Positions 35,719 to 59,842 of a DNA stretch of 64,000 nt are shown here, in pieces. The DNA lies in the IMG/VR virus record IMGVR_UViG_3300032270_000884; one strand, given 5' to 3'. A program made the position numbers and the translations under genes. The notes beneath the pieces are model-generated. The model was not told the origin of the DNA. It ran no database searches and worked only from the letters and a program-made list of their open reading frames with translations. The DNA is from an uncultured virus (IMG/VR IMGVR_UViG_3300032270_000884). Its lineage: Duplodnaviria > Heunggongvirae > Uroviricota > Caudoviricetes. Every line of letters starts with the position of its first letter. The stretch's first letter is position 1.

Positions 35719-35793
35719 CATTACACCTTGGGTAATTGCCTTCATAATTTAGGCAAGGAGAGATCCACTATACGTAACCCCGAGGTGCATAAA

Positions 35794-46983: not shown

Positions 46984-47029
46984 ACCCCCAGCCTTAGCAA
47001 CTCACAATTTGCTTTAAAGGCTGGGGGTA
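46984..47029. terminator. bidirectional terminator between converging blocks
   Basis: ACCCCCAGCCTT...AAGGCTGGGGGT inverted repeat flanked by A/T runs. Confidence 0.8.
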
Positions 47030-47036
47030 ATTTTAT

Positions 47037-47336
47037 TTATAGACCTGCGTCGACCTTGTAAGTTAATTCGCCATCAAGAGTAAGAGGCTTGCCAGTGTCT
47101 AGGTTCCCACTTGTTACAACCATCTTTATTGATTTGCGTGGTGTGTTATCCAATACAACTGACTTAAGATAACGTTTAGCAGCCGATGGGTTAGCCCAAG
47201 CTGTGCATGTGTTTAGATCATAAATCTGATGACCTTCAGTTTGAATTGTGATTTCCAACAACCAAGCCCCGCCCCTATCAAAGATGGTGTTCTTTGCTAG
47301 GTGAGCCTTGAGCGTTTGTGTAATTTTTTTAGCCAT
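47037..47336 (-). CDS. hypothetical protein
   Basis: 99 aa, GGAGG RBS. Confidence 0.7.
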   Translation of the reverse strand: MAKKITQTLKAHLAKNTIFDRGGAWLLEITIQTEGHQIYDLNTCTAWANPSAAKRYLKSVVLDNTPRKSIKMVVTSGNLDTGKPLTLDGELTYKVDAGL

Positions 47337-47742
47337 TTACTTCCTCCAATTGGTTTGCGAGAACATGGTACACCCCAAAGTCCATAGCCTCAACTTGCGC
47401 TATTAACTTGTGGTGTCCTTCGTACGCTTGTTCAATCGTACCGTAACGTTGAGACTTTACGATTTCACTATCTTCATTCCATACATAAGAGACAAAGACA
47501 CGAGGCCTAAAGTTAGGCTTCCACTTTGTAAGACTGAATTGATTCTTAACCATCCAATCATATTCAGGCATATCAACACCAGTCCATTTAGTGTAAATAC
47601 GTAATCCATTAACAGTAGTTTCCTTTTTGAAAGCATACTTGCTACTAGATTCAATGCACCATTGCTTCATGGTTATAGCTTTTCCATTCCTGTCCCAAAA
47701 CAGAAAATCATATGGGTTAGTCTTCATAATGCTCCTCCTCAA
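47329..47742 (-). CDS. hypothetical protein
   Basis: RY.T..QA..GH motif; real start probably 47727. Confidence 0.65.
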   Translation of the reverse strand: MRRSIMKTNPYDFLFWDRNGKAITMKQWCIESSSKYAFKKETTVNGLRIYTKWTGVDMPEYDWMVKNQFSLTKWKPNFRPRVFVSYVWNEDSEIVKSQRYGTIEQAYEGHHKLIAQVEAMDFGVYHVLANQLEEVNG

Positions 47743-47911
47743 AGAAACATTTAAGTGTTCGTGGATCTCGTGGCGTTACCGTGTCACATTCAAAGCATTG
47801 TTCCCACGGAATCAGCCGGTATTTCTGATCCAGGTAGTGATCAACAGCAGGCATACCACCAGCGTTATGTAACTCAATAATCTTATTCTTAAGATTTTCC
47901 ATTAAGTCCAT
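47717..47911 (-). CDS. hypothetical protein
   Basis: start at ATG 47911 behind GGAGG; CFEC. Confidence 0.6.
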   Translation of the reverse strand: MDLMENLKNKIIELHNAGGMPAVDHYLDQKYRLIPWEQCFECDTVTPRDPRTLKCFFEEEHYED

Positions 47912-48437
47912 TGTCCACCTCCACCAATCTGTTGATAATCCATTGAACAACAGGCACTGCAACAGCATTACCCATTTGCTTATATCGTTGTGAATCAGAC
48001 TGTGTGTCAGTCCAACCATCAGGGAACCCCTGTAAGCGCTCGCACTCTACTGGAGTAAGTCTACGAACAGTTGCATCTTCATACGCCAACGTGTCTTTAG
48101 CACGTCGAGCATTAAGACTTGGCGAAACATCTTCTTTAGGGAAGTCATACAACTCAAAGTTTCCTACTTGTGCCACATCACTATCCGTTCTTGCCACCAT
48201 TGGCATATTGTTTCCACCTGTGCCCATGCGGGCCTGTAACGTATTGATAACCGCGCCTTGCATTCTTAGATCATCCACACGATTACCATAGAAGATAAGA
48301 ACTGTAGCTCTTGTGTCTCCATTGTTATCAAAAGCGTTGAGTGTTGGAGTTACATCTCCATCTACCCATGTCTCGAAATCATCCACGTTCTGCGCTCTCC
48401 TACTCTTGATGTACCACAAGGTGACCACTATCCACAT
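47889..48437 (-). CDS. C5 DNA methyltransferase C-terminal part (TRD repeats, motifs IX-X)
   Basis: RRLTPVECERLQGFPD, YKQMGNAV; MGTGGNN. Confidence 0.85.
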   Translation of the reverse strand: MWIVVTLWYIKSRRAQNVDDFETWVDGDVTPTLNAFDNNGDTRATVLIFYGNRVDDLRMQGAVINTLQARMGTGGNNMPMVARTDSDVAQVGNFELYDFPKEDVSPSLNARRAKDTLAYEDATVRRLTPVECERLQGFPDGWTDTQSDSQRYKQMGNAVAVPVVQWIINRLVEVDNGLNGKS

Positions 48438-49134
48438 CTTGGTTGACTACTGTTGCATGATGGTAAATCTCAGCAGGAATAGCGTTTGCTACTTTGCGCC
48501 CATGCCCCGCTCTAGTGCTGAGTGGAGTAGCGCTGGCAATGACTTTCCTCTTTTTGTCGCTCGTCTCAAGATGCCCTCGCATGCCTTCGATGAGAGCAAG
48601 TACTTCTGAAGGTGCACTCCCGTCGTTTCCAAGACATCCAACAATGAAGACTCTACGGCGTCTTTGGGCGACTCCAAAGTGCTGAGCGTCAAGAATCCTG
48701 TATGCGACCCCATACCCGCGCTCAACCAACGCCCCGATAACGGTTCCCATGTCTCTTCCGTCGTTAGATGACAATAAACCGGGGACGTTTTCGAGGATGA
48801 ACCACTTCGCTTTGGTTTCGTCGAGGATGCGACAGATTTCCCAAAAGAGTCCTGACCGAGATCCAGCGAGTCCTGCCCGTTTACCCGCAACGCTGAGGTC
48901 TTGGCAAGGGAAGCCTCCGACAATAATTCCTTCACTACCGTTGAATCCGAGTTCTCTAAGTTGATCACCTGTTACATCCTTTACATCGTTGATAAGTGTT
49001 GAGTTTGGAAATTGTTTTGCTAGTACAGCTCGTGCATGTTTATCGATTTCACATGATGCAACGACTGATACACCAGCACGTTCCAACGCTAAATCAAATC
49101 CACCTACACCAGCGAATAAAGATACGGCTTTCAT
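48400..49134 (-). CDS. C5 DNA methyltransferase N-terminal catalytic part (motifs I-VIII)
   Basis: LFAGVGG, GGFPCQD, ENVPG, QRRRRVFIVG. Confidence 0.93.
   Translation of the reverse strand: MKAVSLFAGVGGFDLALERAGVSVVASCEIDKHARAVLAKQFPNSTLINDVKDVTGDQLRELGFNGSEGIIVGGFPCQDLSVAGKRAGLAGSRSGLFWEICRILDETKAKWFILENVPGLLSSNDGRDMGTVIGALVERGYGVAYRILDAQHFGVAQRRRRVFIVGCLGNDGSAPSEVLALIEGMRGHLETSDKKRKVIASATPLSTRAGHGRKVANAIPAEIYHHATVVNQDVDSGHLVVHQE
48489..48968 (-). CDS. nested alternative-frame methyltransferase-associated polypeptide
   Basis: 159-aa same-strand frame inside the catalytic ORF ending SSLLDVLE...KYLLSSKACEGILRRA..RGK.LP. Confidence 0.65.
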   Translation of the reverse strand: MINLENSDSTVVKELLSEASLAKTSALRVNGQDSLDLGQDSFGKSVASSTKPKRSGSSSKTSPVYCHLTTEETWEPLSGRWLSAGMGSHTGFLTLSTLESPKDAVESSLLDVLETTGVHLQKYLLSSKACEGILRRATKRGKSLPALLHSALERGMGAK

Positions 49135-49355
49135 TCATCCACATCCTTAAGATATTCAAGAGTTCTCTCAGCTTCCATGATGTATATAAGAACGCTGTTT
49201 ATATCCTCTTGTGTTAATGGTTGAGGTAATTCTTGAAGGGCACAACGTGCTGCCACGAGGTTGGCGCCTACTAATCCTTTAACGGTTAGCGTTGCATCCT
49301 CGAATGTACCTGTTTTAAGCATATGGATCATGATTGCATCTTTAGTTGAAATCAT
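49131..49355 (-). CDS. hypothetical protein
   Basis: 74 aa, ATGA overlaps. Confidence 0.6.
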   Translation of the reverse strand: MISTKDAIMIHMLKTGTFEDATLTVKGLVGANLVAARCALQELPQPLTQEDINSVLIYIMEAERTLEYLKDVDE

Positions 49356-49495
49356 TCGTCCTCTCCCACTTTGATGATATGAAGTCGCCCTTCTTCCTGC
49401 AACGATTGCAGTATCTGTTCTTTTGTATCTTTGTCCGAAAATTTTGAATACACCTTCGGCTTTGATTCAATAGGTATTACAGTCTCAAAATCCAT
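49352..49495 (-). CDS. 47-aa hypothetical protein
   Basis: MDFETVIPIESKPKVYSKFSDKDTKEQILQSLQEEGRLHIIKVGEDE fills the gap with overlaps. Confidence 0.55.
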   Translation of the reverse strand: MDFETVIPIESKPKVYSKFSDKDTKEQILQSLQEEGRLHIIKVGEDE

Positions 49496-49751
49496 GAACG
49501 TCAGCCTCATCTGCTATTTCTGACCACTTGTTAATAACATCGTGAATCATCCATAAGCATTGATCATCTGAATAGACTTCACCATCAAGGTCACGAATTG
49601 ACCCAACAATATCTAATACACGACCATTGAGTTCATCTGCTGGAATCTTGCCCTCTCGCAGGTCATCTACATCAGCCATGACCTCCGCCAGTGATGGCGG
49701 GTCGCCCAAAAATTGCTCGCCATTGCTGTCGTATCTAATAATGCGACTCAT
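49485..49751 (-). CDS. acidic hypothetical protein
   Basis: 88 aa, coupled. Confidence 0.65.
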   Translation of the reverse strand: MSRIIRYDSNGEQFLGDPPSLAEVMADVDDLREGKIPADELNGRVLDIVGSIRDLDGEVYSDDQCLWMIHDVINKWSEIADEADVHGF

Positions 49752-49996
49752 GCGCTCACCTTCTTACTTGCATCGACCTTGGCTTGAGAATAGCCCTTGG
49801 AGTGCCAACCTGCCCAAAACTTGGCATAGGTCGCATCTACATATAACTTGATTACTTCTTCTTGTTGCTTGCTGGTGAGGGCTGGACGTACTAGGTCCAT
49901 AAGGGCATGAAATGCCACTTCGCTCTCTTTCTCGTGCTTAGCTTCTTCTTCTAGGTGGTACTCGATTACATGATCGAACATAGTTCCGTATTCCAT
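49748..49996 (-). CDS. hypothetical protein, first gene after promoter P1
   Basis: GGGAG RBS. Confidence 0.7.
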   Translation of the reverse strand: MEYGTMFDHVIEYHLEEEAKHEKESEVAFHALMDLVRPALTSKQQEEVIKLYVDATYAKFWAGWHSKGYSQAKVDASKKVSA

Positions 49997-50086
49997 TTGT
50001 TTCTCCCTTTGTGAGTGGTAGGTGGCGGCTTTTCATATACAAGGTGAAACATCGCCTTAAACGACCTCAACGCGTTTACAAAGAGA

Positions 50087-50141
50087 ACATTAGGGCCATG
50101 AGGCTTAGTGGCCAATAGGATTTGATGTGACGTGCATCACG
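50087..50141 (-). promoter_or_regulatory. cassette promoter P1 with CRP-like box
   Basis: -35 TTGGCC, 17 nt, -10 TAATGT; TGTGACGTGCATCACG 10 nt upstream of -35. Confidence 0.8.
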
Positions 50142-50339
50142 CTGGCGAAAGGGCGCTTAATAGATTTACATCTCCTTGTTTTAATTAGAGAGAGCCTATT
50201 CAAGAGAGATATAGAGAGGGATTGAGTGTGCTCATACGATCTCTGCTTGATTAGTCTCTCATCTAGCCAGAGATGGCTACATATGCGTATATGTTTCTGG
50301 GAAACAGGCTGTAGAGCTGGTTGCACGACTGCTGGGTCA

Positions 50340-50355
50340 TGTGATGTGGCTCACA
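50340..50355. promoter_or_regulatory. isolated CRP-like box
   Basis: TGTGA-TGTGGC-TCACA. Confidence 0.65.
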
Positions 50356-50401
50356 GTAGCCTAATTAGCAGATTTGTCGACATTTAATGTCGGCTATATG
50401 G

Positions 50402-50464
50402 CTCTCTCTACTCTCTCTCTCTCTCCTTCTCTCTCTCTTCAGCTCATTCTCTCTTATCTCTCTC
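50402..50464. repeat. (CT)n polypyrimidine tract
   Basis: about 60 nt almost entirely C/T. Confidence 0.85.
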
Positions 50465-50572
50465 GAGATCGCAAATTCCCGGTGGAATGAGCCAGAATGG
50501 GTCAACAAAGCTGAGTCGGTACGACTCAACTCTCTCTGCTGTGGCCAGGATCACTACAAAAGCTATTGACAA

Positions 50573-50628
50573 AGCTCTCTCTTTACCCTATCCCGAAGGG
50601 ATAAGGGGAGGGTGGGCCAACACAAACA
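50573..50628 (+). repeat. hairpin/G-tract/CCAACACAAACA element copy 1
   Basis: GCTCTCTC...TATCCC GAA GGGATA...GGGGAGGGTGGG CCAACACAAACA. Confidence 0.85.
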
Positions 50629-50661
50629 TTTGGATGGGTGTAGGCTAAAAAAAACAACCAT

Positions 50662-50708
50662 AAAAAAAGAAAAAGCTCCCGGCAGGAGGGCTAACTACCG
50701 CCGGGAGC
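50662..50708 (-). terminator. cassette terminator
   Basis: GCTCCCGGC...GCCGGGAGC stem with adjacent A run on + (U run on -). Confidence 0.8.
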
Positions 50709-50806
50709 GTGTGCTCTACTCGTCTCCGAGGAGCAACTCTGTGTCTTCTAGGGCATCGATGATCTCTAATCCCTCTCTAAGTACTTGATCCATTAACACC
50801 AGGAAT

Positions 50807-51082
50807 TCATTCGTCATAGTCTACCCATGGATCCAGGTGATGAGCGTCCACTATTGCATAAGCTGGCGCCTCTTTCTGGCCTTTCCATAGTACGCCATCG
50901 GGTAACGTGATTAAGCGCTCGCGCTCGCCATCGTTAACGGCCGTGATGGCATCGATGCATGGGAATACCATGCTAGTCGGTACCGGCGGGTAATGATTAT
51001 TTTGCAGCTGTATCTTAATTTGGTGCTGTAGCCCGAGGTCGTGTGTACCTCCAGCTAGCTCTAGTGCCAGGTTTCTTCCCAT
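50807..51082 (-). CDS. hypothetical protein
   Basis: 91 aa, GGGGAG RBS. Confidence 0.7.
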   Translation of the reverse strand: MGRNLALELAGGTHDLGLQHQIKIQLQNNHYPPVPTSMVFPCIDAITAVNDGERERLITLPDGVLWKGQKEAPAYAIVDAHHLDPWVDYDE

Positions 51083-51092
51083 ATCTCTCCCC

Positions 51093-51794
51093 TTATCGTT
51101 TACTTATTGAGAATGTAATGTTTGCGTCGGCCTTTAGGCAGATTCTGCATGCGACGCATGCGCCCTCTAGTGGAATTTGCTTCCGCTGTTCCGGACACTT
51201 AGCGCCTCTCTCGCCTAATTCCATGAGCATGTCTTTCGCTTGAGCAAAAGTCTCATGTAATCCGGCCAGCTTGATACCGTGCTCTTTCAATCTCTTAGCC
51301 GATTCGATATTCTCGCTATCGGTTGAGAAATATAACGCTAGGTTATCCATGCCCTTGAGCATATACGCGGCAGATTCTACACGTGTGTATACCCAAAATA
51401 GGATATCCGGGTTATTTAGAATAACGTGCTTCCATGCGAATGCATAGTCTGGCTTAAAGAAATCCCCGTCCCAATGGATCCGGAATTCTTTAGGCGCATC
51501 CCATTTATCGCATTCCTTGCGAAAGTCTGCAATCATGTCCATTAATAGCGCTTCCATAGTGTCATGGTCCGCGTCTCTCAATAAATCCCAATTATGGATG
51601 AGATTAGCCTTAACGCCACTATAAATTTTCTCTAGCTTGCCCGCGTAGCATATGCGTGTGCATATACTAGTGGCGCTAGGGCATGAATATGCCTTACCCG
51701 CCGGGAGACCGAAAGAATTCGCTATTCTTACGCCGCCCGATGCGGTGAGTGAATTAGCTACCTTGCGGTCCTTACTACGTTTTAATTTCTCCAT
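51093..51794 (-). CDS. GP88-like (radical-SAM-related) protein
   Basis: SF.LPAG...CP.AT..C...CYA, FRIHWDGDF, FWVYTR, C-terminal CP...C..C..C. Confidence 0.75.
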   Translation of the reverse strand: MEKLKRSKDRKVANSLTASGGVRIANSFGLPAGKAYSCPSATSICTRICYAGKLEKIYSGVKANLIHNWDLLRDADHDTMEALLMDMIADFRKECDKWDAPKEFRIHWDGDFFKPDYAFAWKHVILNNPDILFWVYTRVESAAYMLKGMDNLALYFSTDSENIESAKRLKEHGIKLAGLHETFAQAKDMLMELGERGAKCPEQRKQIPLEGACVACRICLKADANITFSISKR

Positions 51795-51843
51795 GATTAG
51801 CCCTCTCTCTTTCATTCCTTATTTAACCCTAGGGCCCTCTAGT

Positions 51844-51953
51844 GGCCAATAGCATTTGCTGTGATATAGGTCACACCTGGATGAGCTTCTCTCTCCAACA
51901 ACTCCCTTACGAAGTAAGTGAGAAACAGGGCGGGAGGGTTTCCAACACAAACA
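51844..51953. repeat. promoter P2 + CRP box + element copy 2
   Basis: GGCCAA 51844, TGTGATATAGGTCACA 51860-51875, GGGCGGGAGGG, CCAACACAAACA 51942-51953; -10 atypical. Confidence 0.85.
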
Positions 51954-51995
51954 AAGCGCGACCCCAGCGGCCGGAGCCGCCAGGATCGCACCGGG

Positions 51996-52175
51996 CTATT
52001 TATTAATCAGAGCTTCCAATTCATAGAGAGCATCTGTGTACCCTTCCCAGTACTTTCTCTCCATGGATTCCATAGCATCTGAATATCCATTCTCTTCCTC
52101 GATTGTTTTAGCATCTAGGTAGGCTGCTGACCCTTCGACCAGCAGCCGTCCCACGATGCTTAATGCGTCAGGCAT
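51996..52175 (-). CDS. hypothetical protein
   Basis: AMESMERKYWEG..DAL; start about 52175. Confidence 0.6.
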   Translation of the reverse strand: MPDALSIVGRLLVEGSAAYLDAKTIEEENGYSDAMESMERKYWEGYTDALYELEALINK

Positions 52176-52626
52176 CTTCCCAATCAGCTGAGCTAACTGC
52201 CCAGCTATCACAGCTCGAATCTCCCGAGCTGGTATCTACTGAGACCCAATCACTGATCCAGGTCTCTGCATCGAAATCTTCTACTTCATCCATTGGTAGC
52301 TCAACCGTAACTTCTACTTCAATTACAGCTGTGATCCGAATTTCAGCTTTTGGTTCGTAACCCAGGATCTCCTGCAAAGCAGCCAGGATCTCCGATGCTT
52401 CTGTATTCGGGTTATACCAATCGTTGCGGGTCATGTGCTCCTGGATCGAAGCTATTGTGGCCCGGAGCTTTTGAGCTTCGGTGCGAGCTTCGCGCCCTTG
52501 GTGCAGCGTCCACTCGAGGTCCACTACCTTGTCGGTAATGTATTCTGGTGCTTCTGGTTCAGCATAGGTGCCAGCTATCTTTTTATAAGTAACTAGCGCA
52601 TTTGGGTTATATGTATCGACGCTCAT
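52168..52626 (-). CDS. acidic hypothetical protein
   Basis: start at ATGA overlap 52626. Confidence 0.65.
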   Translation of the reverse strand: MSVDTYNPNALVTYKKIAGTYAEPEAPEYITDKVVDLEWTLHQGREARTEAQKLRATIASIQEHMTRNDWYNPNTEASEILAALQEILGYEPKAEIRITAVIEVEVTVELPMDEVEDFDAETWISDWVSVDTSSGDSSCDSWAVSSADWEDA

Positions 52627-52868
52627 GCCTTCACCCCCTTGAGCATTGCATTGAGCTCGGCCTTGATTCGGCGAGCATTCTCTCCTCTCCATGAGGTGAG
52701 ATTAGCAAGCGCATATAACACTATTGATTCAGCGCTATCAGCGAAGTAAGTATCGCTAATTGAATTTAGCGATTTCATTGGTGTCACATATGCTTCTGCA
52801 TATACGTACCAATCCTTGGTACTGCATTCCCACTCAATCTCTTGAGCGATTTCATTCAGTGCTCTCAT
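52623..52868 (-). CDS. conserved phage protein
   Basis: R.L.EIA.EI...YFADSA.SIV.Y.L.N..SWRGE.AR.IKAEL. Confidence 0.7.
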   Translation of the reverse strand: MRALNEIAQEIEWECSTKDWYVYAEAYVTPMKSLNSISDTYFADSAESIVLYALANLTSWRGENARRIKAELNAMLKGVKA

Positions 52869-52906
52869 GTAGCCCTCCCAGTGAATGACCGTCATCCACT
52901 AAGAGC

Positions 52907-53034
52907 AACTTATGCCCACTCTCTCTAGTGGCCAATGGCTTTTGCTGTTATCTACATCACACCCAGGATCGAGCTCTCTCTTACCCATTCCCTGAAAGGG
53001 TTAGACAGGGTGGGAGGGCTGTCCAACACAAACA
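52907..53034. repeat. promoter P3 + CRP-like box + element copy 3
   Basis: -35 TTGGCC/17/-10 TAAGTT on - strand; TGTTATCTACATCACA; GGGTGGGAGGG; CCAACACAAACA 53023-53034. Confidence 0.85.
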
Positions 53035-53104
53035 TTAGGCATCGGGAAAAGAAGTTTTGGCGCCCTAAAAAACCGGGCAGCTGATCGAGCAGCTGGATCC
53101 AGGT

Positions 53105-53139
53105 AAAGAAAAACGCCCCCAGCTTTTGGCTGAGGGCGC
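53105..53139 (-). terminator. cassette terminator
   Basis: CGCCCCCAGC TTTTG GCTGAGGGCG stem next to A run. Confidence 0.75.
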
Positions 53140-53223
53140 TTCTCTAATCACCACACGGTTCGTCGTGCTTGTGAATCCAAGAACACTTGTCACATGTCTC
53201 TTCCCACTCACGCATCACGGCCA

Positions 53224-53775
53224 TTAGGCCGTGACCTTATTCTTCTCAAAGCGATTTACTATGCCTTCTGGTAATGGCTCGTATGGGTCAATAAGGAATG
53301 TCTTGCTGGTGAACTTTCCATCAACCATGTCAGACTCGAAGTGCATGTATTTGTATGGCTCAGGTTCGTCCCATCTGCGAATTTCACCTGATACGAATAA
53401 CTTGCCGTCCTTGACAAGGTATAACCAGCGCTCGCCTTCTTCCCCACTCCATTCCATTTCAGAACCATCTTTGACGAATGGTGCAAGGACTGCGAGTAGT
53501 AAATCTTCTTGACCTGTTTTGTTGTTGTATCCATCTATAGAGAATGTCCCTTGACTTTCTGATGTCTCGAATCCGAAAGCGTTGACAATCTCTTCTGCTT
53601 TAGTGGCACTCTCAAATTCAGAATCATTGACCCATGAGAACCATGACTCTCCACCTGATGAACCGCCACGCTTGATGCTGTGATACTTGGTTGGCATTTC
53701 TTTTAGAGTTGCCAATAATTCAGGAGATTCGGTAAGTTCCCAATCTGATGAATGTAAAGATACGTAGTAACCCAC
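53224..53775 (-). CDS. hypothetical protein
   Basis: GTG start 53775 behind GGGCTAAC; LAPFVKDGS.MEW.GEEG..W. Confidence 0.7.
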   Translation of the reverse strand: MGYYVSLHSSDWELTESPELLATLKEMPTKYHSIKRGGSSGGESWFSWVNDSEFESATKAEEIVNAFGFETSESQGTFSIDGYNNKTGQEDLLLAVLAPFVKDGSEMEWSGEEGERWLYLVKDGKLFVSGEIRRWDEPEPYKYMHFESDMVDGKFTSKTFLIDPYEPLPEGIVNRFEKNKVTA

Positions 53776-53815
53776 GTTAGCCCTTCTCTCTCTTAGCACC
53801 TTGCTAAGTAGTAGA

Positions 53816-53947
53816 ACCTTCTCATGCATGGCCCTAGTCACCAATGACATTTGTAGTGATTCACATCACACCTGGATCCGAGCTACCCGGTGAGCTTCTC
53901 TCATACATACATACTCCCTAAACGGGGTGGGAGGGCCAACACAAACA
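53816..53947. repeat. promoter P4 + CRP-like box + element copy 4
   Basis: -35 TTGGTG/17/GAAGGT; AGTGATTCACATCACA; GGGGTGGGAGGG; CCAACACAAACA 53936-53947. Confidence 0.85.
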
Positions 53948-54030
53948 AACGCGCCGGGCGAGCTGCCCGGGATCTCAGCTGTATTAGTGGGCCATTTTAA
54001 AGTGTGGCCCAGCACTCTCGTAGTTTGGGG

Positions 54031-54213
54031 CTAACGAGAAACCTTTACCTGCCCCAGTCTCTCAGGAACGTATGTCGTCCAACGGATCACGAGATCCGCG
54101 GTCAACAACTTCAATCTAGTGGAGCCCGTGTCATTTGGCACGATTTCCATGATTACTCCAGTAACGCCAGTCTTTTGCGTAGTGTAGGTATCACCTACTT
54201 CTAATCTAGGCAT
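54031..54213 (-). CDS. small SH3-like beta protein (paralog of 38469-38672)
   Basis: VGDTYTTQKTGVTGVIMEIVPNDTGSTR...RWTT. Confidence 0.7.
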   Translation of the reverse strand: MPRLEVGDTYTTQKTGVTGVIMEIVPNDTGSTRLKLLTADLVIRWTTYVPERLGQVKVSR

Positions 54214-54457
54214 TGAGTGTCCTCACTTCTCCACCTTGCGGATGCTCCGCAGGTAGTGCTAGTCCGAACAAGAATCCCCCGCCATTACCCTCAGGGTCCT
54301 GCGATACTGAGATTAGTCCAATCTCACCATTAGCGAATTGAACGGTGAACTCAGGGAACCCGTCACCTAAATCATCCTCGGTATTCATACCGTCGAATGA
54401 TAGGATGCGAGCGCCTACGAATGAACCGTAATACCGCTTCCAAAAATCATCTGCCAT
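54206..54457 (-). CDS. hypothetical protein
   Basis: SQDPEGNGGGFLF motif; start 54457. Confidence 0.7.
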   Translation of the reverse strand: MADDFWKRYYGSFVGARILSFDGMNTEDDLGDGFPEFTVQFANGEIGLISVSQDPEGNGGGFLFGLALPAEHPQGGEVRTLNA

Positions 54458-54501
54458 GTTAGCCCCCATTCGTTAGATACTGTGCTTCTCTAACAAGATG
54501 A

Positions 54502-54619
54502 ACACTATGCCCTAGCGCTTTACTCACCAATAGCATTTGTAGTGATGTGCGTCACAGCTTCTCTCTCCTACCTTCCCTGTAAGGGAAAGGATCAGGGCGG
54601 GTGGGATCCAACACAAACA
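54502..54619. repeat. promoter P5 + CRP box + element copy 5
   Basis: -35 TTGGTG/17/-10 TAGTGT; AGTGATGTGCGTCACA; GGGCGGGTGGG; CCAACACAAACA 54608-54619. Confidence 0.85.
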
Positions 54620-54661
54620 AATAGGCTAGGCATTGGGAAAATAATGTATTTTGGCATCCCT

Positions 54662-54695
54662 AAAAAAATAGAGCGCCCCCCGAAGGGAGCGCCCT
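54662..54695 (-). terminator. cassette terminator
   Basis: GCGCCCCC CGAA GGGAGCGC stem beside A run. Confidence 0.7.
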
Positions 54696-54711
54696 ACTTA
54701 TTGGCTAGGGG

Positions 54712-55170
54712 CTAAGCGATAGCCAACTCTTCTTCGACCTTGAAGGTTTCTACAACCTTTGGGTGCAACTCGTTACGCATTGAAGCGAACGCGTCTTTTG
54801 ACCAACCTGCTTTGAACACTCGGTCAAGCAACTTAGCAAGTGAATACTCAGGGTCGAGCAACTGCGCTTGCATAAGTGATACATAAGCCAACTCGTTATC
54901 GCCAGCCTCATAATAGAACGCTGAGAGAACTGTATAAAACGGTGAGCGGTGACCTTCTTCTACTAACGGAAGGATTTCGGTGACGAACTTAATCGCGCCT
55001 TCTGCTCCGAAAGTAATGGGTGCGTGTCCTAGTAGGTAATCACGAACCTGTAAATCCTGAATTGAATACACTAGTAAATTAACTGCATTTACTGGCAACG
55101 GCTCAGACTTTACAAACGCCTCTACAATTTCATTGTAAGCGTCTAGTGCTTGCTTATTTGTTAATTTCAT
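54712..55170 (-). CDS. DUF4192-like protein
   Basis: DLQVRDYLLG ... YSLAKLL.RV...GW. Confidence 0.65.
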   Translation of the reverse strand: MKLTNKQALDAYNEIVEAFVKSEPLPVNAVNLLVYSIQDLQVRDYLLGHAPITFGAEGAIKFVTEILPLVEEGHRSPFYTVLSAFYYEAGDNELAYVSLMQAQLLDPEYSLAKLLDRVFKAGWSKDAFASMRNELHPKVVETFKVEEELAIA

Positions 55171-55219
55171 TTCTTAGCCCCTCTTTCGTAAGTTACTTCC
55201 GTTTCACTTACTAACCCGA

Positions 55220-55343
55220 ACATTACAACCGCCTCTATTAGTCACCAATACCTTTTGCTGTGATGTGCGTCACATAGCTGAACTCTCTCCTCCCGATCCC
55301 TTTAGGGATAGGACACTGGGAGGGTGGGTGTCCAACACAAACA
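55220..55343. repeat. promoter P6 + CRP box + element copy 6
   Basis: -35 TTGGTG/17/-10 TAATGT; TGTGATGTGCGTCACA; GGGAGGGTGGG; CCAACACAAACA 55332-55343. Confidence 0.87.
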
Positions 55344-55397
55344 TTTTGGCGAGCCGCGCCGCCCCAGGCCGGAGCCTGGAGCAGCGAGCCGCTTCTC

Positions 55398-55817
55398 TTA
55401 TAGATACCTTGCTATGGATTTCATAGTTGAGGCATTTACTGTTTCTTCTTCGGTCATACGCAAGATGCTAAGGGCATTTGTAATGTCCTCTTTCATCTCT
55501 TTGTATTCGTGAAGGTGGATTTTGTCGTGTTCCCGCACGGGTTCTTTTGGAAACTCATTGCCATCAACTGTGAGGTCAAAATCAACATTGAGAGTCTTGT
55601 TCCACTCCCGATAGTTGGTTCTAACATTAGAAGCCTTTGAGAAGCGGTCAATAGCCCACTTTCCAATTTCTTTGCGCCACGCTTCCATAGCGTTTTGGTA
55701 TTGAGCATCATTGGACTCTTGAGAAGCAAAATCCAACTCAATTTTTTCCAACTTTGCTTGTAGAGCAGTTATTACTTTTGCTGTTGGAACTTTTACTGTT
55801 ATTGCTTTTGATGCCAT
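55398..55817 (-). CDS. hypothetical protein
   Basis: 139 aa, GGAGGGCTAA leader. Confidence 0.7.
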   Translation of the reverse strand: MASKAITVKVPTAKVITALQAKLEKIELDFASQESNDAQYQNAMEAWRKEIGKWAIDRFSKASNVRTNYREWNKTLNVDFDLTVDGNEFPKEPVREHDKIHLHEYKEMKEDITNALSILRMTEEETVNASTMKSIARYL

Positions 55818-55820
55818 TGT

Positions 55821-56087
55821 TTAGCCCTCCACTAGATTTTTAGTTGCGACATAATCAACGAAGTTAGACGCACCAGCCATACGAGAAACCATTGCTAGAG
55901 TTTCCAGTATTTGTAATGCCTCATCTCGTTCCATTCCCGCTTGGGTCATAGCGTGTGCGCCAGCCTGAATAAGCAAGTCTGAAAAGGGTGCTAGATTATT
56001 TTCTAGAAACTTTACTTCATCTCTAGAGAGGTCATCTACTCTTGCGATAAGGTCAAACACTTTGTATGCCTTCTGTTCTTCCATCAT
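55821..56087 (-). CDS. hypothetical protein
   Basis: 88 aa, GGGGCTAA leader. Confidence 0.7.
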   Translation of the reverse strand: MMEEQKAYKVFDLIARVDDLSRDEVKFLENNLAPFSDLLIQAGAHAMTQAGMERDEALQILETLAMVSRMAGASNFVDYVATKNLVEG

Positions 56088-56131
56088 TGTTTAGCCCCAA
56101 TTCGTTAGGGTCGTTCGCCCTAACTAAGAGA

Positions 56132-56248
56132 ACCTTCTCATCTCCTGCCCTAGTGCCCAATACCATTTGCTGTTAGATACATCACACCGCTCTCTCCACC
56201 CTTCCCTTTAGGGATTAGGTACTGGGAGGGCGGGTACCAACACAAACA
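56132..56248. repeat. promoter P7 + CRP-like box + element copy 7
   Basis: -35 TTGGGC/17/GAAGGT; TGTTAGATACATCACA; GGGAGGGCGGG; CCAACACAAACA 56237-56248. Confidence 0.85.
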
Positions 56249-56264
56249 TTTGGCGCGACATGGC

Positions 56265-56300
56265 AAAGCGCCCCGCCCCTGAACGGAGAGGCGAGGCGCT
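56265..56300 (-). terminator. cassette terminator
   Basis: AGCGCCCCGCCCCT...AGAGGCGAGGCGCT stem. Confidence 0.7.
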
Positions 56301-56312
56301 GTACCTGTTCGC

Positions 56313-56774
56313 TTACCAACTAGATCGGTAAGAGAATTCCCAATCATCTGAGATTGCTAGGCACTTCTCGACGATTTCAATCGTGCGCTTTAGGTTCTCG
56401 TAGTACCACTCATCTCGTTCGGCATTACCGAAGAAGAAGCCTGAAGCTGGTTCAAGTAGTCCAGCGCCACGAGTGTTAGCAGTAACCAAAAGCTCTAACT
56501 TACAGTTATCTCGCAACTGTTCTAACTGTTCTCGTGATACATAGTGAGGACGGCACTCGTCCTCGCCACCCTGAACTTCCTTCACGAACCAGTTATGAAT
56601 TGCGTTAGCCTTGCGCCAGTATCCAACTGTGAATTGGATTTCAATAGATGGGCTATCTTCGGTGACCTGAACATCAGGATACATTGAAGAGATAGCGTTG
56701 AACTCGCTGGTGTCCTTCATATGAGACCAGCCACCAACATACTTACGAGCGTGAAGATACATATCAAGACCCAT
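56313..56774 (-). CDS. conserved phage protein
   Basis: MGLDMYL...YWRKANAIHNWFV...GFFFG...Y.SSW. Confidence 0.8.
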   Translation of the reverse strand: MGLDMYLHARKYVGGWSHMKDTSEFNAISSMYPDVQVTEDSPSIEIQFTVGYWRKANAIHNWFVKEVQGGEDECRPHYVSREQLEQLRDNCKLELLVTANTRGAGLLEPASGFFFGNAERDEWYYENLKRTIEIVEKCLAISDDWEFSYRSSW

Positions 56775-56775
56775 T

Positions 56776-56961
56776 TTATTTTTCCTCCCAAGTGAAGTCG
56801 CACATCACGCCTTCGATAGTCTGCTTACAAGATGATTGGTCAATGACTTGATGATGAGTAGAGATGAATACAACCCCAGCGACTACGGCAGAGATAGCCA
56901 TAACGAACGCCGAGAACAACAAGGAAGCGAATACTATTTCGCCTCGTGGTGTTAGTTTCAT
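56776..56961 (-). CDS. small membrane protein
   Basis: MKLTPRG followed by a hydrophobic helix. Confidence 0.7.
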   Translation of the reverse strand: MKLTPRGEIVFASLLFSAFVMAISAVVAGVVFISTHHQVIDQSSCKQTIEGVMCDFTWEEK

Positions 56962-57006
56962 TTGTTAGCCCCATTTCATTGGTAGTCGTTCGCTACCAAT
57001 AAGACA

Positions 57007-57105
57007 ACCATAGGGGCGAGCGTGTTAGTCACCAAGACCATTTGCTGTGGTGTTCGTCACATCTACATAGAAAGACCCCCCCACCCTTAAGTGACTTGCG
57101 TCACA
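57007..57105 (-). promoter_or_regulatory. promoter P8 with two CRP-like boxes
   Basis: -35 TTGGTG/17/-10 TATGGT; TGTGGTGTTCGTCACA 57046-57061; AGTGACTTGCGTCACA 57090-57105. Confidence 0.8.
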
Positions 57106-57148
57106 GAAAGGGGGCCCAGGCCACAAAAACAAGATTCACATACACGGG

Positions 57149-58024
57149 TCACACAGTAGCCTTAAATTCTTCAGGTAGTTTCTTATTTTTGCTGAGATTG
57201 CATTTTCCGTGAGATGGTCTGACGTTGTGAAGAGCATCTGGCCCTCCACGAGAAATAGGGATTACATGATCAAATTGAAGACCTTTTTCCCAACCGGGTT
57301 GCCCAGGTTGCCGTGCAGCGTTCATGTCAATATCTAATTCGCATATGTAGCAAATTGTGCCGTGGATGGCTAGTACATCTTGCTCGGTATACTTATCAAA
57401 GCCATTCTTAAGTCTGGTAGCACGTCTTCTTCGCTCCATAGCTCTTCGCTTTTCAGGAAACTGTGCATAATACTTTTTAGAGTACTCAGCCCTTTTGTCC
57501 TTATTTCTTTGGTATGCCTCACGATTTCTTCGTGCATGGGCTACTGGATCAGCTAATTTGCGCTTACGGTTATATTCCCTAAGCTTGGCACGATTCTCTT
57601 TGCCATACTTTTTTGCTCGTGCTTTTACCTTCTCAGGGTTGTTCTTCCTGTATCGTTTCTGTAGCTCGCTTGCTTTTTTCTTTCGTTGCTTTTCTTTAGC
57701 AATATCTTCAGCAATTTCTTCAGGGGTAGGGTTGGTTAATCGCCTTACCCGTTCAAGCTCTTTTAACCTAATGCGCTCTTCACGCTCAGCGGAATAATAT
57801 AGTTTTTTATGGTATTCCTTAACAGCTGCTTTTTTCTCAGGTTTGGCTAAATATGCGTTTTTGTATTGCTTATTCTTATCTGGTTTTTTCTTGTGGTACT
57901 CCCTACGGTATTCCCTCATAGCCTCTCTGCAGGGCAGGCACAGTTCTTCTCCCCTTTTACGGTGAATCTTGTACCCTGCATATGTGCCGCATCGTTCATT
58001 TACGGTTGCGGGGGACTTTTCCAT
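57149..58024 (-). CDS. HNH endonuclease with basic helical repeats
   Basis: CGTYAGY..H...C..C N-terminus; CYIC...FDHVIPISRGG....NVRPSH..CN..K. Confidence 0.9.
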   Translation of the reverse strand: MEKSPATVNERCGTYAGYKIHRKRGEELCLPCREAMREYRREYHKKKPDKNKQYKNAYLAKPEKKAAVKEYHKKLYYSAEREERIRLKELERVRRLTNPTPEEIAEDIAKEKQRKKKASELQKRYRKNNPEKVKARAKKYGKENRAKLREYNRKRKLADPVAHARRNREAYQRNKDKRAEYSKKYYAQFPEKRRAMERRRRATRLKNGFDKYTEQDVLAIHGTICYICELDIDMNAARQPGQPGWEKGLQFDHVIPISRGGPDALHNVRPSHGKCNLSKNKKLPEEFKATV

Positions 58025-58046
58025 TTCGGAATACTATCATTGCCCT

Positions 58047-58424
58047 ATGGCTAAGAAGCAAGAGCGCTACAAGAAACTTCCTCCTTTGAAGGCAAAGAAG
58101 GTAACCTCCATGAATAAAGGTGGCGGTAATACTGAGAAGCTTTCTAAGCTAACTAAGATGGAGATTGCTGAAGGCAATTTGGCCTCTGAGAAGATTGCTA
58201 ATCGCCCTACTAAGGATTTCTCTAGGGAAGAACTAGGTTCCCTGATGCAGGTACCGCCCGGTGGCGCTGAGCCTCATCAAGTTAAGACACAGTCTCGCCA
58301 ATTCAATAGAGTCGCCAGCGACCTGCCAGAAGCAACAGTTAATGATCAAGTCATTGGAGTACGTTCTGATTACAAGAAGAAGCCTATGTCAGCTAAGACT
58401 CCTAAAATAGACCCAGAAGATTAG
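58047..58424 (+). CDS. basic hypothetical protein
   Basis: leaderless start 58047 after TATCAT. Confidence 0.65.
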   Translation: MAKKQERYKKLPPLKAKKVTSMNKGGGNTEKLSKLTKMEIAEGNLASEKIANRPTKDFSREELGSLMQVPPGGAEPHQVKTQSRQFNRVASDLPEATVNDQVIGVRSDYKKKPMSAKTPKIDPED

Positions 58425-58460
58425 AACCCATTCTGCGCTAAATAGATTTACCCTAATGCC

Positions 58461-58682
58461 ATGTTCATGCCATGGCTATTAGAGCAAGAAGATAGAGACG
58501 ATGAAATCGGCCTTCTATACAAGATGATCTATACAGATCACAATAACGGCTGTCTCAACAGCCTTAGCAGCATGAAACACATTATCCATCACTTCATTAA
58601 TGTACACCCAAAGCAGTTCCTAATCCTTCGCTCGTACCTTGTCGTTGCTATTAAGGCATACGAAGACCCACTGGCAAAGTAA
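58461..58682 (+). CDS. YozE/SAM-like small protein
   Basis: F..WL..Q..RDD.IG.L. Confidence 0.55.
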   Translation: MFMPWLLEQEDRDDEIGLLYKMIYTDHNNGCLNSLSSMKHIIHHFINVHPKQFLILRSYLVVAIKAYEDPLAK

Positions 58683-58691
58683 ACTTTACCT

Positions 58692-59090
58692 ATGGCTAAC
58701 AGAACTCCACGCATCCCCTCCAACGACTGGGTACAAGCTCGCCCGCCTGAGGGAGCCTCTACGGCTGAATTTAACAATTGGTCAAAAGAAAACCCTAATC
58801 GTGTTGCAGATGCTAAGCGCACACAACGCTCTATGGGTAAAGAGAATCCTTCTAAAGAGGGATACCGCCAGAATGCAAGTGGAACTGAATCAGCAGTTCG
58901 TAAGAAAGCAGTTGCTAAGTGGCAAGGCGCACGTCCGGTATCTGGAAAAGGTGGCGCACAATCTGCTGAAGATAAAGAGAAGAAGCGTCAGACCATGATT
59001 GAGTGGGCTAAAACAAATCCTAACCGTCGTGATAACGCTAAAGCCGCACAAGGAAAGAAAACATCAAAGCGTCCTAAGAAGGCTAAGTAA
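58692..59090 (+). CDS. basic protein
   Basis: two W.K.NPNR repeats; Lys-rich tail. Confidence 0.7.
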   Translation: MANRTPRIPSNDWVQARPPEGASTAEFNNWSKENPNRVADAKRTQRSMGKENPSKEGYRQNASGTESAVRKKAVAKWQGARPVSGKGGAQSAEDKEKKRQTMIEWAKTNPNRRDNAKAAQGKKTSKRPKKAK

Positions 59091-59224
59091 TGATTCCAGA
59101 TAAGAGCAACGTATATTCATTAGATGACAAGCGTGCTGAGAAGCAAGCAGAAGCAAAGAAGGAACGTCAATGGGGACCACAGCAAGCAGGAGTTGTAAAG
59201 AGCTATGACCCAGACAATAAATAA
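59090..59224 (+). CDS. 44-aa protein
   Basis: MIPDKSNVYSLDDKRAEKQAEAKKERQWGPQQAGVVKSYDPDNK; TAATG overlap. Confidence 0.55.
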   Translation: MIPDKSNVYSLDDKRAEKQAEAKKERQWGPQQAGVVKSYDPDNK

Positions 59225-59309
59225 ATGCAAACGTTGCGGACATACAATGGATTATGGTGTGTGCGACGAACATCTATGTGGATGCGTGTGTACTAAAAAT
59301 GATTTTTGA
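59205..59309 (+). CDS. 34-aa Cys-rich peptide
   Basis: MTQTINKCKRCGHTMDYGVCDEHLCGCVCTKNDF. Confidence 0.45.
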   Translation: MTQTINKCKRCGHTMDYGVCDEHLCGCVCTKNDF

Positions 59310-59517
59310 TCCAGCAGTAGGTAAGACTCGTGAGCAACGTGCATTTGGTAAAGATGCTAAGGGTGCTAATGGTGTCAGTACAGGGTCGGCTCGTTCGAAA
59401 GCATTTATTGGAACGCGTAAAGTTGAAAAGGGTATGTGGTCAGGTCCACGTGCTAGTTACGGTAGATATCAAGTAGGCGACACTGCAAGTGATGCTGTTA
59501 ATAAAGGAGTGCGATGA
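59299..59517 (+). CDS. basic hypothetical protein
   Basis: start probably ATG 59299. Confidence 0.6.
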   Translation: MIFDPAVGKTREQRAFGKDAKGANGVSTGSARSKAFIGTRKVEKGMWSGPRASYGRYQVGDTASDAVNKGVR

Positions 59518-59699
59518 TTCCAGATAAAATGCAATTCTCTGCCAAGGTAGAGGGAGAACGTGAACAGCGTGCTGTTGATGCTGCTTGGGCTAAAGAGCAA
59601 TGGGACGCAAAAGGCGGCGATAAGGCTGCTGTAAACTTTAAACCTGAGTTCAAAGGACAATCCTACGAACAACAACTTGCATCTAAGAAGGCAAAATGA
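59514..59699 (+). CDS. small protein with MxPxxxQF N-terminus
   Basis: MIPDKMQFS; AAGGAG RBS. Confidence 0.65.
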   Translation: MIPDKMQFSAKVEGEREQRAVDAAWAKEQWDAKGGDKAAVNFKPEFKGQSYEQQLASKKAK

Positions 59700-59839
59700 A
59701 AAAAGAAAAGAAGCCTGACGAAAAGACTGGTTTATTCAACGATAAGCCTAAAGTAGCCGGAAAAGCGTTCTACAACAAAAATGCTGTTGTAAAGCCTAAG
59801 AAGTCCCAAGGTGGGTATGTCCGTAAGGGCAACCGCTAA
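59696..59839 (+). CDS. 47-aa Lys-rich protein
   Basis: MKKEKKPDEKTGLFNDKPK...; ATGA overlap. Confidence 0.6.
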   Translation: MKKEKKPDEKTGLFNDKPKVAGKAFYNKNAVVKPKKSQGGYVRKGNR

Positions 59840-59842
59840 AAA

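Follow-up and report, generated by a model that had tools for sequence, protein, structure and literature searches.

Predicted joints of an early-gene cassette array in an uncultured actinophage carry an oriented 12-mer and a local hairpin

Introduction

The PeSL (promoter-early stem-loop) cassettes of T4-type phages combine a terminator stem-loop with an early promoter of the host type, and the small genes that they flank are gained, lost and reordered (Arbiol et al. 2010, PMC2839356). In this paper, we analyse a 64,000-nucleotide stretch of DNA from an uncultured virus of the Caudoviricetes (IMG/VR record IMGVR_UViG_3300032270_000884), referred to below as the window, in which seven elements between positions 50,573 and 56,248 each carry a 12-nt word, CCAACACAAACA, next to G-rich tracts and small hairpins. 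A preliminary description, made from the window alone, had read these elements as a structured RNA or single-stranded DNA (ssDNA) signal on the + strand. We propose that they are very probably the joints of a PeSL-like array of early-gene cassettes in an actinophage, that the hairpin they contain is a real, local one and that they lie outside the known RNA families, a view that is built on sequence comparison.

Other described systems also invite comparison with the 12-mer. The stoperators of the cluster A mycobacteriophages are asymmetric 13–14-bp sites in fixed orientation to transcription that are thought to stop elongating RNA polymerase; they are bound by the immunity repressor of these temperate phages and stand in the stop orientation inside operons. 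The lambda nut site (boxA plus boxB) and the RfaH ops element are found downstream of a promoter and upstream of the terminators that they override. A third type of sequence is the localised nick motif. In phage tf, a 9-mer is associated with 14 nicks and has 17 sites when single-substitution variants are included, all on the top strand; early and late genes in this genome converge, and the nick sites are denser in one half of it and occupy similar positions in related phages (PMC3517423).

Architecture of the joints

Genes in the window are encoded on the + strand from 1 to 47 kb, on the minus strand from 47 to 58 kb and again on the + strand from 58 kb onward. The minus-strand block consists of small genes, mostly of unassigned function (11 of the 15 early-block proteins scanned lack a PHROG match), and it is here that the elements lie. 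Exact copies of CCAACACAAACA are present on the + strand at 50617, 51942, 53023, 53936, 54608, 55332 and 56237, all as previously reported, and the degenerate copy placed at 57121 is also there, reading CCACAAAAACA. By arithmetic estimate, chance alone would place any given 12-mer about 0.004 times on each strand of 64 kb; a shuffle control was confined to matches with up to two mismatches and is uninformative on exact copies. The preliminary description held that the word always lies 0–4 nt after GGGnGGGnGGG. This is true of the seven sites, where the gaps are 0, 3, 4, 0, 2, 3 and 2 nt in coordinate order, but is wrong as a rule, because an eighth exact + strand copy at 3549, within the open reading frame (ORF) 3252–4301, has no G tract.

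What had been overlooked is that each element forms one half of a terminator-to-promoter joint between minus-strand cassettes. Reading along the minus strand, the GC-rich terminator hairpin of the previous cassette is followed by TGTTTGTGTTGG (the 12-mer as it appears on this strand), a hairpin with CCCnCCCnCCC in its loop, a second small hairpin, the purine run GGAGAGAG, a TGTGA-N6-TCACA box and a promoter. After the box come exactly 10 nt, a TTGGnn −35 hexamer, exactly 17 nt, a −10-like hexamer, a leader, a GGG(G)CTAA ribosome site and the start codon. Eight promoters with this identical spacing can be predicted from the sequence; five of the eight −10 hexamers fit TAnnnT, with A at the second position in seven and T at the sixth in all eight, and for six of the eight the ribosome site is found 17–38 nt downstream. 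The eight boxes (50126–57061) depart from TGTGA-N6-TCACA at 0–2 positions each and, at their fixed distance of 10 nt from the −35 hexamer, are centred near −53.5. We take this pattern to be the CRP/FNR-type consensus. Because the joint order repeats, each time with its own promoter and terminator, the 47–58 kb block can be read as an array of eight self-contained early cassettes in which the elements are the joints.

The terminators are likewise predictions from sequence. A GC-rich hairpin follows each cassette in the window, and terminator-like sites are enriched (26, against 11.3 expected), the tails of two of them reaching into the 12-mer. At 51955–51992 (minus strand), the hairpin of the previous cassette has a tail, TTGTTTGTGT, that continues into the 12-mer, as does the tail CGCGTTTGTT of the hairpin CCGGGC-AGCTC-GCCCGG at 53954–53970. 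Across the wider family of elements described below, an upstream GC hairpin is present in 66 of 82, ending no more than 12 nt from the 12-mer in 40; the element lies 0–13 nt behind a predicted terminator in 46 of the 82, and upstream of the next promoter.

Five of the seven joints in the window follow the full plan on the minus strand. The element at 56190–56248 has TGTTTGTGTTGG, a stem GGTAC/GTACC around CCGCCCTCCCA, the hairpin TCCC-TAAA-GGGA and GGAGAGAG; its box and promoter (56132–56186) read TGTGATGTATCTAACA, 10 nt, TTGGGC, 17 nt, GAAGGT. At 55283–55343, the 12-mer is followed by a stem GGACA/TGTCC around the C tract, the hairpin ATCCC-TAAA-GGGAT and GGAGAGAG, and at 55220–55274 by TGTGACGCACATCACA, 10 nt, TTGGTG, 17 nt and TAATGT, a promoter predicted to drive the DUF4192 gene at 54712–55170. 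The joint at 54561–54619 has a stem GGAT/ATCC around CCCACCCGCCC, the hairpin TTCCCT-TAC-AGGGAA and GGAGAGAG, with TGTGACGCACATCACT, 10 nt, TTGGTG, 17 nt and TAGTGT at 54502–54556. At 52974–53034, a stem GACAG/CTGTC encloses the C tract and the hairpin CCCT-TTC-AGGG precedes AGAGAGAG, the box and promoter at 52907–52961 being TGTGATGTAGATAACA, 10 nt, TTGGCC, 17 nt, TAAGTT. The element at 51889–51953, with only three G3 tracts on its + strand, has a stem GAAAC/GTTTC around CCTCCCGCCCT, the hairpin CTTAC-TTC-GTAAG and GGAGAGAG; the promoter beyond it (51821–51875; TGTGACCTATATCACA, 10 nt, TTGGCC, 17 nt, TTAAAT) is predicted to drive 51093–51815 (GP88 family) and 50807–51082.

The remaining joints are of other kinds. 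The element at 53896–53947 is of a short form (form A, see below) in which the 12-mer abuts CCCTCCCACCCC and is followed by GTTTAGGGAGT and GAGAGAA; here too there are only three G3 tracts on the + strand, and the box and promoter at 53816–53870 read TGTGATGTGAATCACT, 10 nt, TTGGTG, 17 nt, GAAGGT. A second form A element, at 50575–50628, comprises the 12-mer, CCCACCCTCCCC, the hairpin TATCCC-TTC-GGGATA and AGAGAGAG, and leads not directly to a promoter but to a 450-nt non-coding GA-rich stretch, with the eighth promoter at 50087–50141 (CGTGATGCACGTCACA, 10 nt, TTGGCC, 17 nt, TAATGT). The degenerate joint at 57062–57131 has TGTTTTTGTGG, C- and G-rich stretches and an extra TGTGAC-N4-GTCACT box, and stands upstream of the promoter at 57007–57061 (TGTGACGAACACCACA, 10 nt, TTGGTG, 17 nt, TATGGT).

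Two stretches of the joint region merit separate mention. Between the terminator and the 12-mer, at 53035–53075 and 54620–54668, there is an extra conserved insert, TTTTTTAGGG.GCCAAAA...TTTTCCC.ATGCCTA on the minus strand, which is also present in the related loci L002, L004 and L005 (handles beginning with G and L denote related genomes and loci throughout). The GA-rich stretch between the last joint and the eighth promoter (50150–50575) is some 450 nt without a convincing ORF, and its minus strand has long (GA)n/(GAGAGA) runs, a palindrome TTGAGTCG...CGACTCA and the motif TTGTCAATAGC. Similar stretches come after the last joint in L001 and G003, and this region could be related to an origin or to DNA entry. 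A small ORF beginning at the AATG of the 12-mer was considered and rejected, as judged by eye, for want of a ribosome site and of conservation of the upstream A.

Spread and reordering in related phages

Searching IMG/VR for TGTTTGTGTTGG plus a C tract returned 87 stretches in about 45 uncultured phage contigs, corresponding to 85 distinct elements; 65 of these could be parsed as far as the purine run. The relatives are 90–100 kb phages from metagenomes; the direct terminal repeats ascribed to them are IMG/VR labels. The segment from the 12-mer to GAGAGAG is the best-conserved part of the element across the family, whilst the operator in the adjoining slot varies by phage: CRP-type boxes in the window, TTATCCACA (DnaA-box-like) in G005 and others, and TTATAACGAAATCGTTATAA in L017. 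The promoter likewise differs between phages. The arrangement of homologous early genes is not the same in the window, L003, G006 and G003; the DUF4192 gene, for example, has moved relative to 55398–56087. We propose that the repeated joints may also act as crossover points for the shuffling of cassettes.

Outside phages, the element is close to absent. A search of bacterial and archaeal genomes (596 Gb; one representative for each of 185,579 species) gave 61 pattern matches but only one true element, a 7.3-kb contig binned with a Nanopelagicaceae metagenome-assembled genome (MAG) and bearing seven co-oriented copies. Since the other 60 matches are not true elements and the remainder of this MAG holds near-matches at chance level only, the element appears to be phage-specific. 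A host Chi-like or host regulatory word was rejected on the same grounds, the 12-mer occurring within the MAG in that contig alone. Nor are its 8-mer cores enriched in the MAG: TGTGTTGG occurs 25 times against 17 for its control, and TGTTTGTG 30 times (seven of them in that contig) against 12. The nearest record to the window, G001 (17 kb), has no copy of the 12-mer, and the matches listed in a full-text literature search for it came from unrelated eukaryote or primer contexts.

The local hairpin

Covariation was judged by arm-swap permutation tests, chosen because MAFFT alignment puts the variable-length stem in shifting columns. Two forms of the first hairpin can be distinguished. In form B (29 distinct elements), two to four extra bases after the GG of the 12-mer pair with bases just past the C tract to give a 4–6-bp stem (GGTA/TACC, GGACA/TGTCC, GGAT/ATCC and GGTCAG/CTGACT, for example), leaving the C3/G3 tract unpaired in a loop of 11–13 nt; in form A (37 of the 65 parsed elements), the loop can be closed by GG/CC only. 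There are 18 different 5′ arms among the 29 form B elements. When each arm is paired with its own partner, Watson–Crick pairs sum to 108, compared with a mean of 46.4 when arms are swapped (standard deviation 5.8, maximum 71), and none of 5000 shuffles reaches the observed value. The local stem that holds the tract in its loop covaries strongly.

The preliminary description is upheld on the general point that the elements are real, structured and strand-oriented, and on the claim that they belong to no known family: Rfam 15, searched with both strands of window positions 47000–60000 at E values up to 1, gave no match at the elements and only two sub-threshold matches, Thr_leader and sbrA, at terminators (27 and 25 bits, where the gathering scores are 55 and 45).

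The 12-mer outside the joints

The 12-mer had also been presented as the invariant end of the element. That is not what the relatives, or the window itself, suggest: from its distribution, it is an autonomous word of these genomes, found alone inside late genes as well. In the window, the exact copy at 3549–3560 (+ strand) lies in the glycosyltransferase-like ORF 3252–4301, where it encodes PTQT in a hypervariable stretch with neither G tract nor hairpin, and a one-mismatch copy, TCAACACAAACA, is found on the + strand at 6468–6479 inside the tail-sheath gene. In relatives, the variant TGTTTGTGTTGA is common, and several solo copies fall within late structural genes, where they are read in either of two frames (giving PTQT or NTN) and have neither tract nor hairpin close by.

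The glycosyltransferase-like genes are informative in this regard. Among 81 homologues, the four codons at the 12-mer site are hypervariable in 75, whilst the adjoining TRPRYKYT is conserved; more than 50 different codon strings occupy the four-residue spot before TRPRYKYT in these 81 sequences (window 3531–3581, loci L192–L271). In the window and its five closest homologues (79–85% identity), by contrast, the four codons are exactly CCAACACAAACA, even though the residues just upstream vary. Fixed codons at a hypervariable spot suggest that selection on CCAACACAAACA acts at the level of DNA (or RNA) and that the word was put at a site tolerated by the protein. More distant relatives do not have the 12-mer: it is absent from 16 of 20 genomes in one set and also from G018, G019 and G021.

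The word is one-sided in much of the family. Every one of 36 exact copies is on the same strand in the window (8), G002 (4), G003 (9), G004 (5), G006 (5) and G013 (5), and with one mismatch allowed the same strand carries 46 of 49 copies in G002, G003, G004 and G006. Elsewhere, forward and reverse exact copies number 11 and 2 in G023, 4 and 1 in G024, 3 and 5 in G027, and 4 and 4 in G012. Orientation relative to local genes seems to hold more widely than this one-strand rule. With rough ORF picks of our own as gene calls (in the window, G003, G006, G023, G024 and G027), 35 solo exact copies have CCAACACAAACA on the sense strand in 25 cases, antisense in 4 and at junctions of opposed genes in 6; among the 13 joint copies, 10 have TGTTTGTGTTGG on the sense strand, and these all lie behind a terminator.

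The early block of G023 illustrates the point. It is homologous to that of the window (after RNR, with DUF4192, WhiB and AAA/VWA genes) but has CCAACACAAACA in the gene sense, opposite to the window, as 11 solo copies about 1.1 kb apart. This region (71.4–84.9 kb; L275, L276) has no C-tract joints. Spacings between its solo copies range from 840 to 1842 bp, and each of two long genes has one solo copy mid-gene, as if a maximum spacing were kept. At convergent gene junctions (G003:242, G023:71293 and G024:43054), the 12-mer forms the reverse-direction tail of predicted bidirectional terminators.

A proposed polar stop mark

What might such a word do? The reading that we prefer, although we hold it tentatively and at a little under even odds, treats the 12-mer as a polar stop mark by which cassettes would be insulated from one another, through a termination tail or through a nick or roadblock. 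Transcription that reads CCAACACAAACA would pass, and this is the orientation found inside and between genes almost everywhere; transcription that reads UGUUUGUGUUGG would stop, and the UGUUUGUGUUGG orientation is the one placed just behind early terminators, at convergent gene junctions or antisense to genes. At the joints, the word would seal each cassette against read-through into the next promoter. The stop itself might be brought about by a factor-dependent, U/G-rich termination tail, by a one-way protein roadblock or by nicking of the template strand at a specific site, of the kind found in phages that carry localised nicks. More speculatively, the C tract displayed by the hairpin could serve as a backup, for example as a C-rich loading patch for Rho on read-through RNA.

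A number of observations sit awkwardly with a stop mark of this kind. There is no consistent hairpin beside the solo copies, so that these cannot be ordinary intrinsic terminators and a further factor or a nick has to be assumed. In several joints, three or four A residues separate the terminator hairpin from the 12-mer, which is poor for a classical U tract, and the folded part of the element lies downstream of the proposed stop point, where the model leaves its role unexplained. Polarity is blurred in G005, G011, G016 and G017, which carry the 12-mer as inverted pairs at the base of hairpins of about 20 bp, and at least one solo copy (G027:6719) is in the stop orientation inside a real gene. 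The polarity counts depend on rough gene calls, and the sense bias within genes could reflect mere coding constraint, PTQT and NTN being set against CLCW and VCV in the other direction. The second hairpin also points elsewhere. On the minus strand, its loops are TTC (13 cases), TAC (7) and TAAA (7), equivalent to GAA, GTA and TTTA on the + strand, and GNA triloops are very stable in DNA; the GAA and GTA loops, which make up 20 of about 30 clear hairpins, would therefore fit stable DNA triloops on the strand opposite to the one on which the joints are read.

In its boldest form, to which we give a rather low probability, the proposal extends to a genome-wide directional barrier in lake actinophages. 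One 12-bp word, as a template nick or roadblock, would let transcription pass in the gene direction and stop it in the other; it would be set into permissive codons of late genes and behind every early cassette, with the G3/C3 hairpin as a single-strand handle that loads a barrier enzyme or termination factor. Should the word indeed be a polar mark, one short oriented word would divide a genome into insulated transcription units, and could be imposed even on protein-coding sequence, a hypervariable four-codon stretch having been frozen to CCAACACAAACA in the clade that uses it. The localised nicks of phages would gain a testable function, and terminator, stop word, operator box and promoter would make up a first regulatory grammar for uncultured freshwater actinophages.

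Alternative explanations

A first alternative, drawn by analogy, gives the 12-mer the role of recognition word in a phage nicking system, the joints being no more than the parking place of most nick sites and any effect on transcription secondary or absent. This version is attractive because the nick 9-mer of phage tf has the same genomic signature (PMC3517423): the exact copies in six genomes are confined to one strand although early and late genes lie on opposite strands, they cluster in the early block, some are inside genes and positions are kept between relatives. The strand exclusivity fails, however, in G023, G024, G027 and G012, where it is the orientation to local genes that is kept, and the inverted pairs of G005, G011, G016 and G017, 50–90 bp apart, would lead to nicks in both strands. 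A conserved nickase was not found either. The window's HNH endonuclease (57149–58024), considered as the cognate enzyme, was rejected, having a homologue in only one of five motif-bearing complete genomes, and no HUH or relaxase domain is present among the 63 window and 92 G003 proteins scanned. It is because strand exclusivity breaks down in part of the family, and because no conserved nickase was found, that we keep this version as a separate and unlikely rival.

Somewhat less likely still is that the 12-mer acts in the sense direction, as CCAACACAAACA. It might then be the core of a late or operon promoter, an ops/RfaH-like site for loading or pausing on the non-template strand, or an mRNA site, close to ribosome sites, for a phage RNA-binding protein; at the joints of the window it would serve antisense (+ strand) transcription over the early block. 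Of the 29 solo copies whose orientation can be decided, 25 carry CCAACACAAACA on the sense strand of the local genes, which fits with this, as does the position of each joint copy just 5′ of a GC hairpin on the + strand. Solo copies (one mismatch allowed) also lie within −12 to +45 nt upstream of a start codon preceded by a Shine–Dalgarno sequence in 10 of 46 cases, against 329 of 4685 random positions, a threefold excess, and the series stop codon or terminator, 12-mer, Shine–Dalgarno sequence and start recurs at G003:9348 (after the capsid gene), G023:73523, G024:46969, G027:8424 and G027:23253. The other 36 solo copies are not near a start, though, and many are mid-gene; with nothing conserved upstream or downstream of solo copies, the late-promoter version was rejected. 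The proteins scanned include neither a sigma factor nor a NusG-like protein, the joints show no evident + strand promoter, and the inverted orientation of 10 of the 13 joint copies would be purposeless unless antisense transcription exists.

We consider it improbable that the elements work as the preliminary description envisaged, that is, as a + strand RNA or ssDNA that toggles between a CTCTCTC:GGG hairpin and a G-quadruplex and serves as a signal for priming, recombination or DNA entry. Part of the description is accurate. A fourth GGG is indeed within reach in five of the seven window copies, and RNAfold predicts, on the + strand, a CUCUCUC:GGGAGGG helix that makes the + strand RNA 2–6 kcal/mol more stable than the minus in six of the seven (at 56190–56248, the minus strand is better by 0.6 kcal/mol). 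The GAA and GTA loops of the second hairpin favour the same strand, and the conserved feature of the tracts, namely three tracts of exactly three with single-nucleotide spacers that are free but never C, is a constraint on tract type rather than on sequence.

The central claims fare less well. Compensating changes between CTCTCTC and the G tracts had been cited as evidence of pairing, but across the 65 elements own pairs do not outdo swapped ones (the observed value is reached in 1485 of 2000 shuffles for form B and in 886 of 2000 for form A), and the predicted helix, by drawing the tract into pairing, is in competition with the local stem that does covary. Pseudoknots and pairing of the loop with the purine tract, looked for on either strand, showed no covariation. 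The asserted preference for folding on the + strand is mixed: although the + strand RNA is mostly the more stable, the outermost pair of the local stem is a G.T on the minus strand in nine cases and the + strand equivalent never occurs. Fold energies are unremarkable against shuffles, with z-scores of −2.0 to −0.2 (mean about −1.1) for + strand RNA, −0.75 to +0.10 for minus strand RNA and +0.7 to −1.3 for DNA of both strands. Four G3 tracts are present in only 26 of the 65 family elements, so that an intramolecular quadruplex is not the conserved property, and the tract is looped rather than paired with CTCTCTC. Any 7-deazaguanine in the DNA, as the DpdA-like phrog_887 gene described below might imply, would block quadruplexes. 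A + strand non-coding RNA finds little encouragement in the weak + strand z-scores and in joints where no + strand promoter was seen. The quadruplex switch is an attractive reading that we correct here as unsupported, whilst a role at the DNA level, which the description also listed, is possible.

Finally, it seems very unlikely that the joints are mobile or recombination-active DNA, whether MITE-like (miniature inverted-repeat transposable elements) with the 12-mer as terminal repeat or attC-like folds, conserved for a recombinase or structure-specific nuclease that moves cassettes: cassettes are indeed reordered between close relatives, the 12-mer and its complement bracket 40–90 bp as perfect inverted repeats with compensated changes (e.g. 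TGTTTGTGCTGG/CCAGCACAAACA) in G005, G011, G016 and G017, the first early gene encodes an endonuclease-VII-like HNH protein and the PeSL units of T4-type phages recombine and form mini-circles (PMC2839356), but neither an integrase nor a transposase or HUH domain turned up in the scanned proteins of the window and G003, the HNH gene is not kept along with the motif, solo 12-mers written into coding sequence are not insertion scars, and homologous recombination between any repeated regulatory sequences explains the shuffling without a dedicated enzyme.

The phage and its host

On the evidence of its genes, the source of the window is an uncultured myovirus of actinobacteria. These include genes for tail sheath, tube (gp19 domain) and baseplate proteins, a DnaB-type helicase, a primase, PolA, a UvsX/RecA-like recombinase and RNR, together with the WhiB, GP88 and DUF4192 domains that are markers of actinobacterial phages. 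The closest phages in culture belong to the BRock group of Streptomyces phages, with protein identity of about 39%, and a megablast search of window positions 47000–58500 against cultured phages gave no match. A scan for tRNA and tmRNA genes found none. The host is probably a low-GC freshwater actinobacterium (acI/Nanopelagicaceae), as a single binned contig weakly suggests.

Several genes outside the array, or at its edges, are of interest in their own right. The DpdA-like gene at 43330–44790 matches phrog_887 (queuine tRNA-ribosyltransferase; E 7e-49), with no Pfam match at E 0.01, and hints at 7-deazaguanine in the phage DNA. The overlapping minus-strand ORFs 47889–48437 and 48400–49134 match DNA methyltransferase families over different parts of the profile and may be a split or frameshifted methyltransferase. 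In the HNH/endonuclease-VII-like protein encoded by the first gene of the early block (57149–58024), residues 1–50 resemble the C-terminal part of WhiB-like regulators; a full WhiB gene, separate from this one, is located at 32552–32878. A SpoVS-family gene is found in this actinobacterial phage at 35728–36075, and G003 has one too. The early block of G003 also encodes an ArdC-like protein (L121:16920–17789), with an ssDNA-binding anti-restriction N-terminal domain and a metallopeptidase, from a family known from plasmid leading regions.

Comparison with known systems

How, then, do the joints relate to the systems outlined at the outset? They differ from integron attC sites and cassette arrays in that no integrase domain is present among the 63 window and 92 G003 proteins and each cassette has its own predicted promoter, attC cassettes being promoterless and moved by the tyrosine recombinase IntI. 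With nut and ops, they share a conserved linear word of about 12 nt by a small hairpin whose loop is conserved and whose stem varies, and they are likewise orientation-specific; unlike nut and ops, they lie behind a terminator and upstream of the next promoter, and an N-like, NusG-like or RfaH-like protein was not found. Like stoperators, the 12-mers are asymmetric sites scattered through an actinophage genome with their orientation fixed relative to transcription. They differ in that copies inside operons have the predicted pass orientation and the stop orientation is confined to sites behind terminators, and no repressor was identified; nor, unlike the temperate phages that carry stoperators, do the window and G003 have an integrase among the proteins scanned.

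A further likeness is to localised nick motifs (tf and LUZ24-like, phiKMV-like and T5 phages; PMC3517423). As in these phages, the 12-mer is a rare oligomer with about 10–17 copies per genome, one-substitution variants included; in several genomes it keeps to one strand even though gene blocks converge, its copies are concentrated in one part of the genome, and they may fall within genes and are conserved in position among relatives. It differs in being 12 nt long, G/T-only on one strand and tied to hairpins at joints, and is known here from sequence alone. Its exclusivity is broken in G023, G024 and G027 and in the inverted-pair genomes (G012 and G016 too), and there is no nickase candidate that is conserved.

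In its plan, the array resembles the PeSL cassettes of T4-type phages (PMC2839356). Both have short repeated intergenic units in which an early promoter of host type (sigma-70 family), predicted from sequence in the window, is combined with a stem-loop, a terminator in the PeSL units and a putative one here, both have units that flank small, mostly unassigned genes, and in both, relatives differ by shuffling at the units. The phage in the window is an unrelated actinophage rather than a T4-type phage, with no nucleotide match in the phage collection, and its joints are longer, at about 130–190 nt. Terminator and promoter are separated by a CRP-type box and a conserved 60-nt insert made up of the 12-mer, the two hairpins and the purine run. 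This insert is kept even between phages that have different operators and promoters, and the 12-mer occurs outside joints as well.

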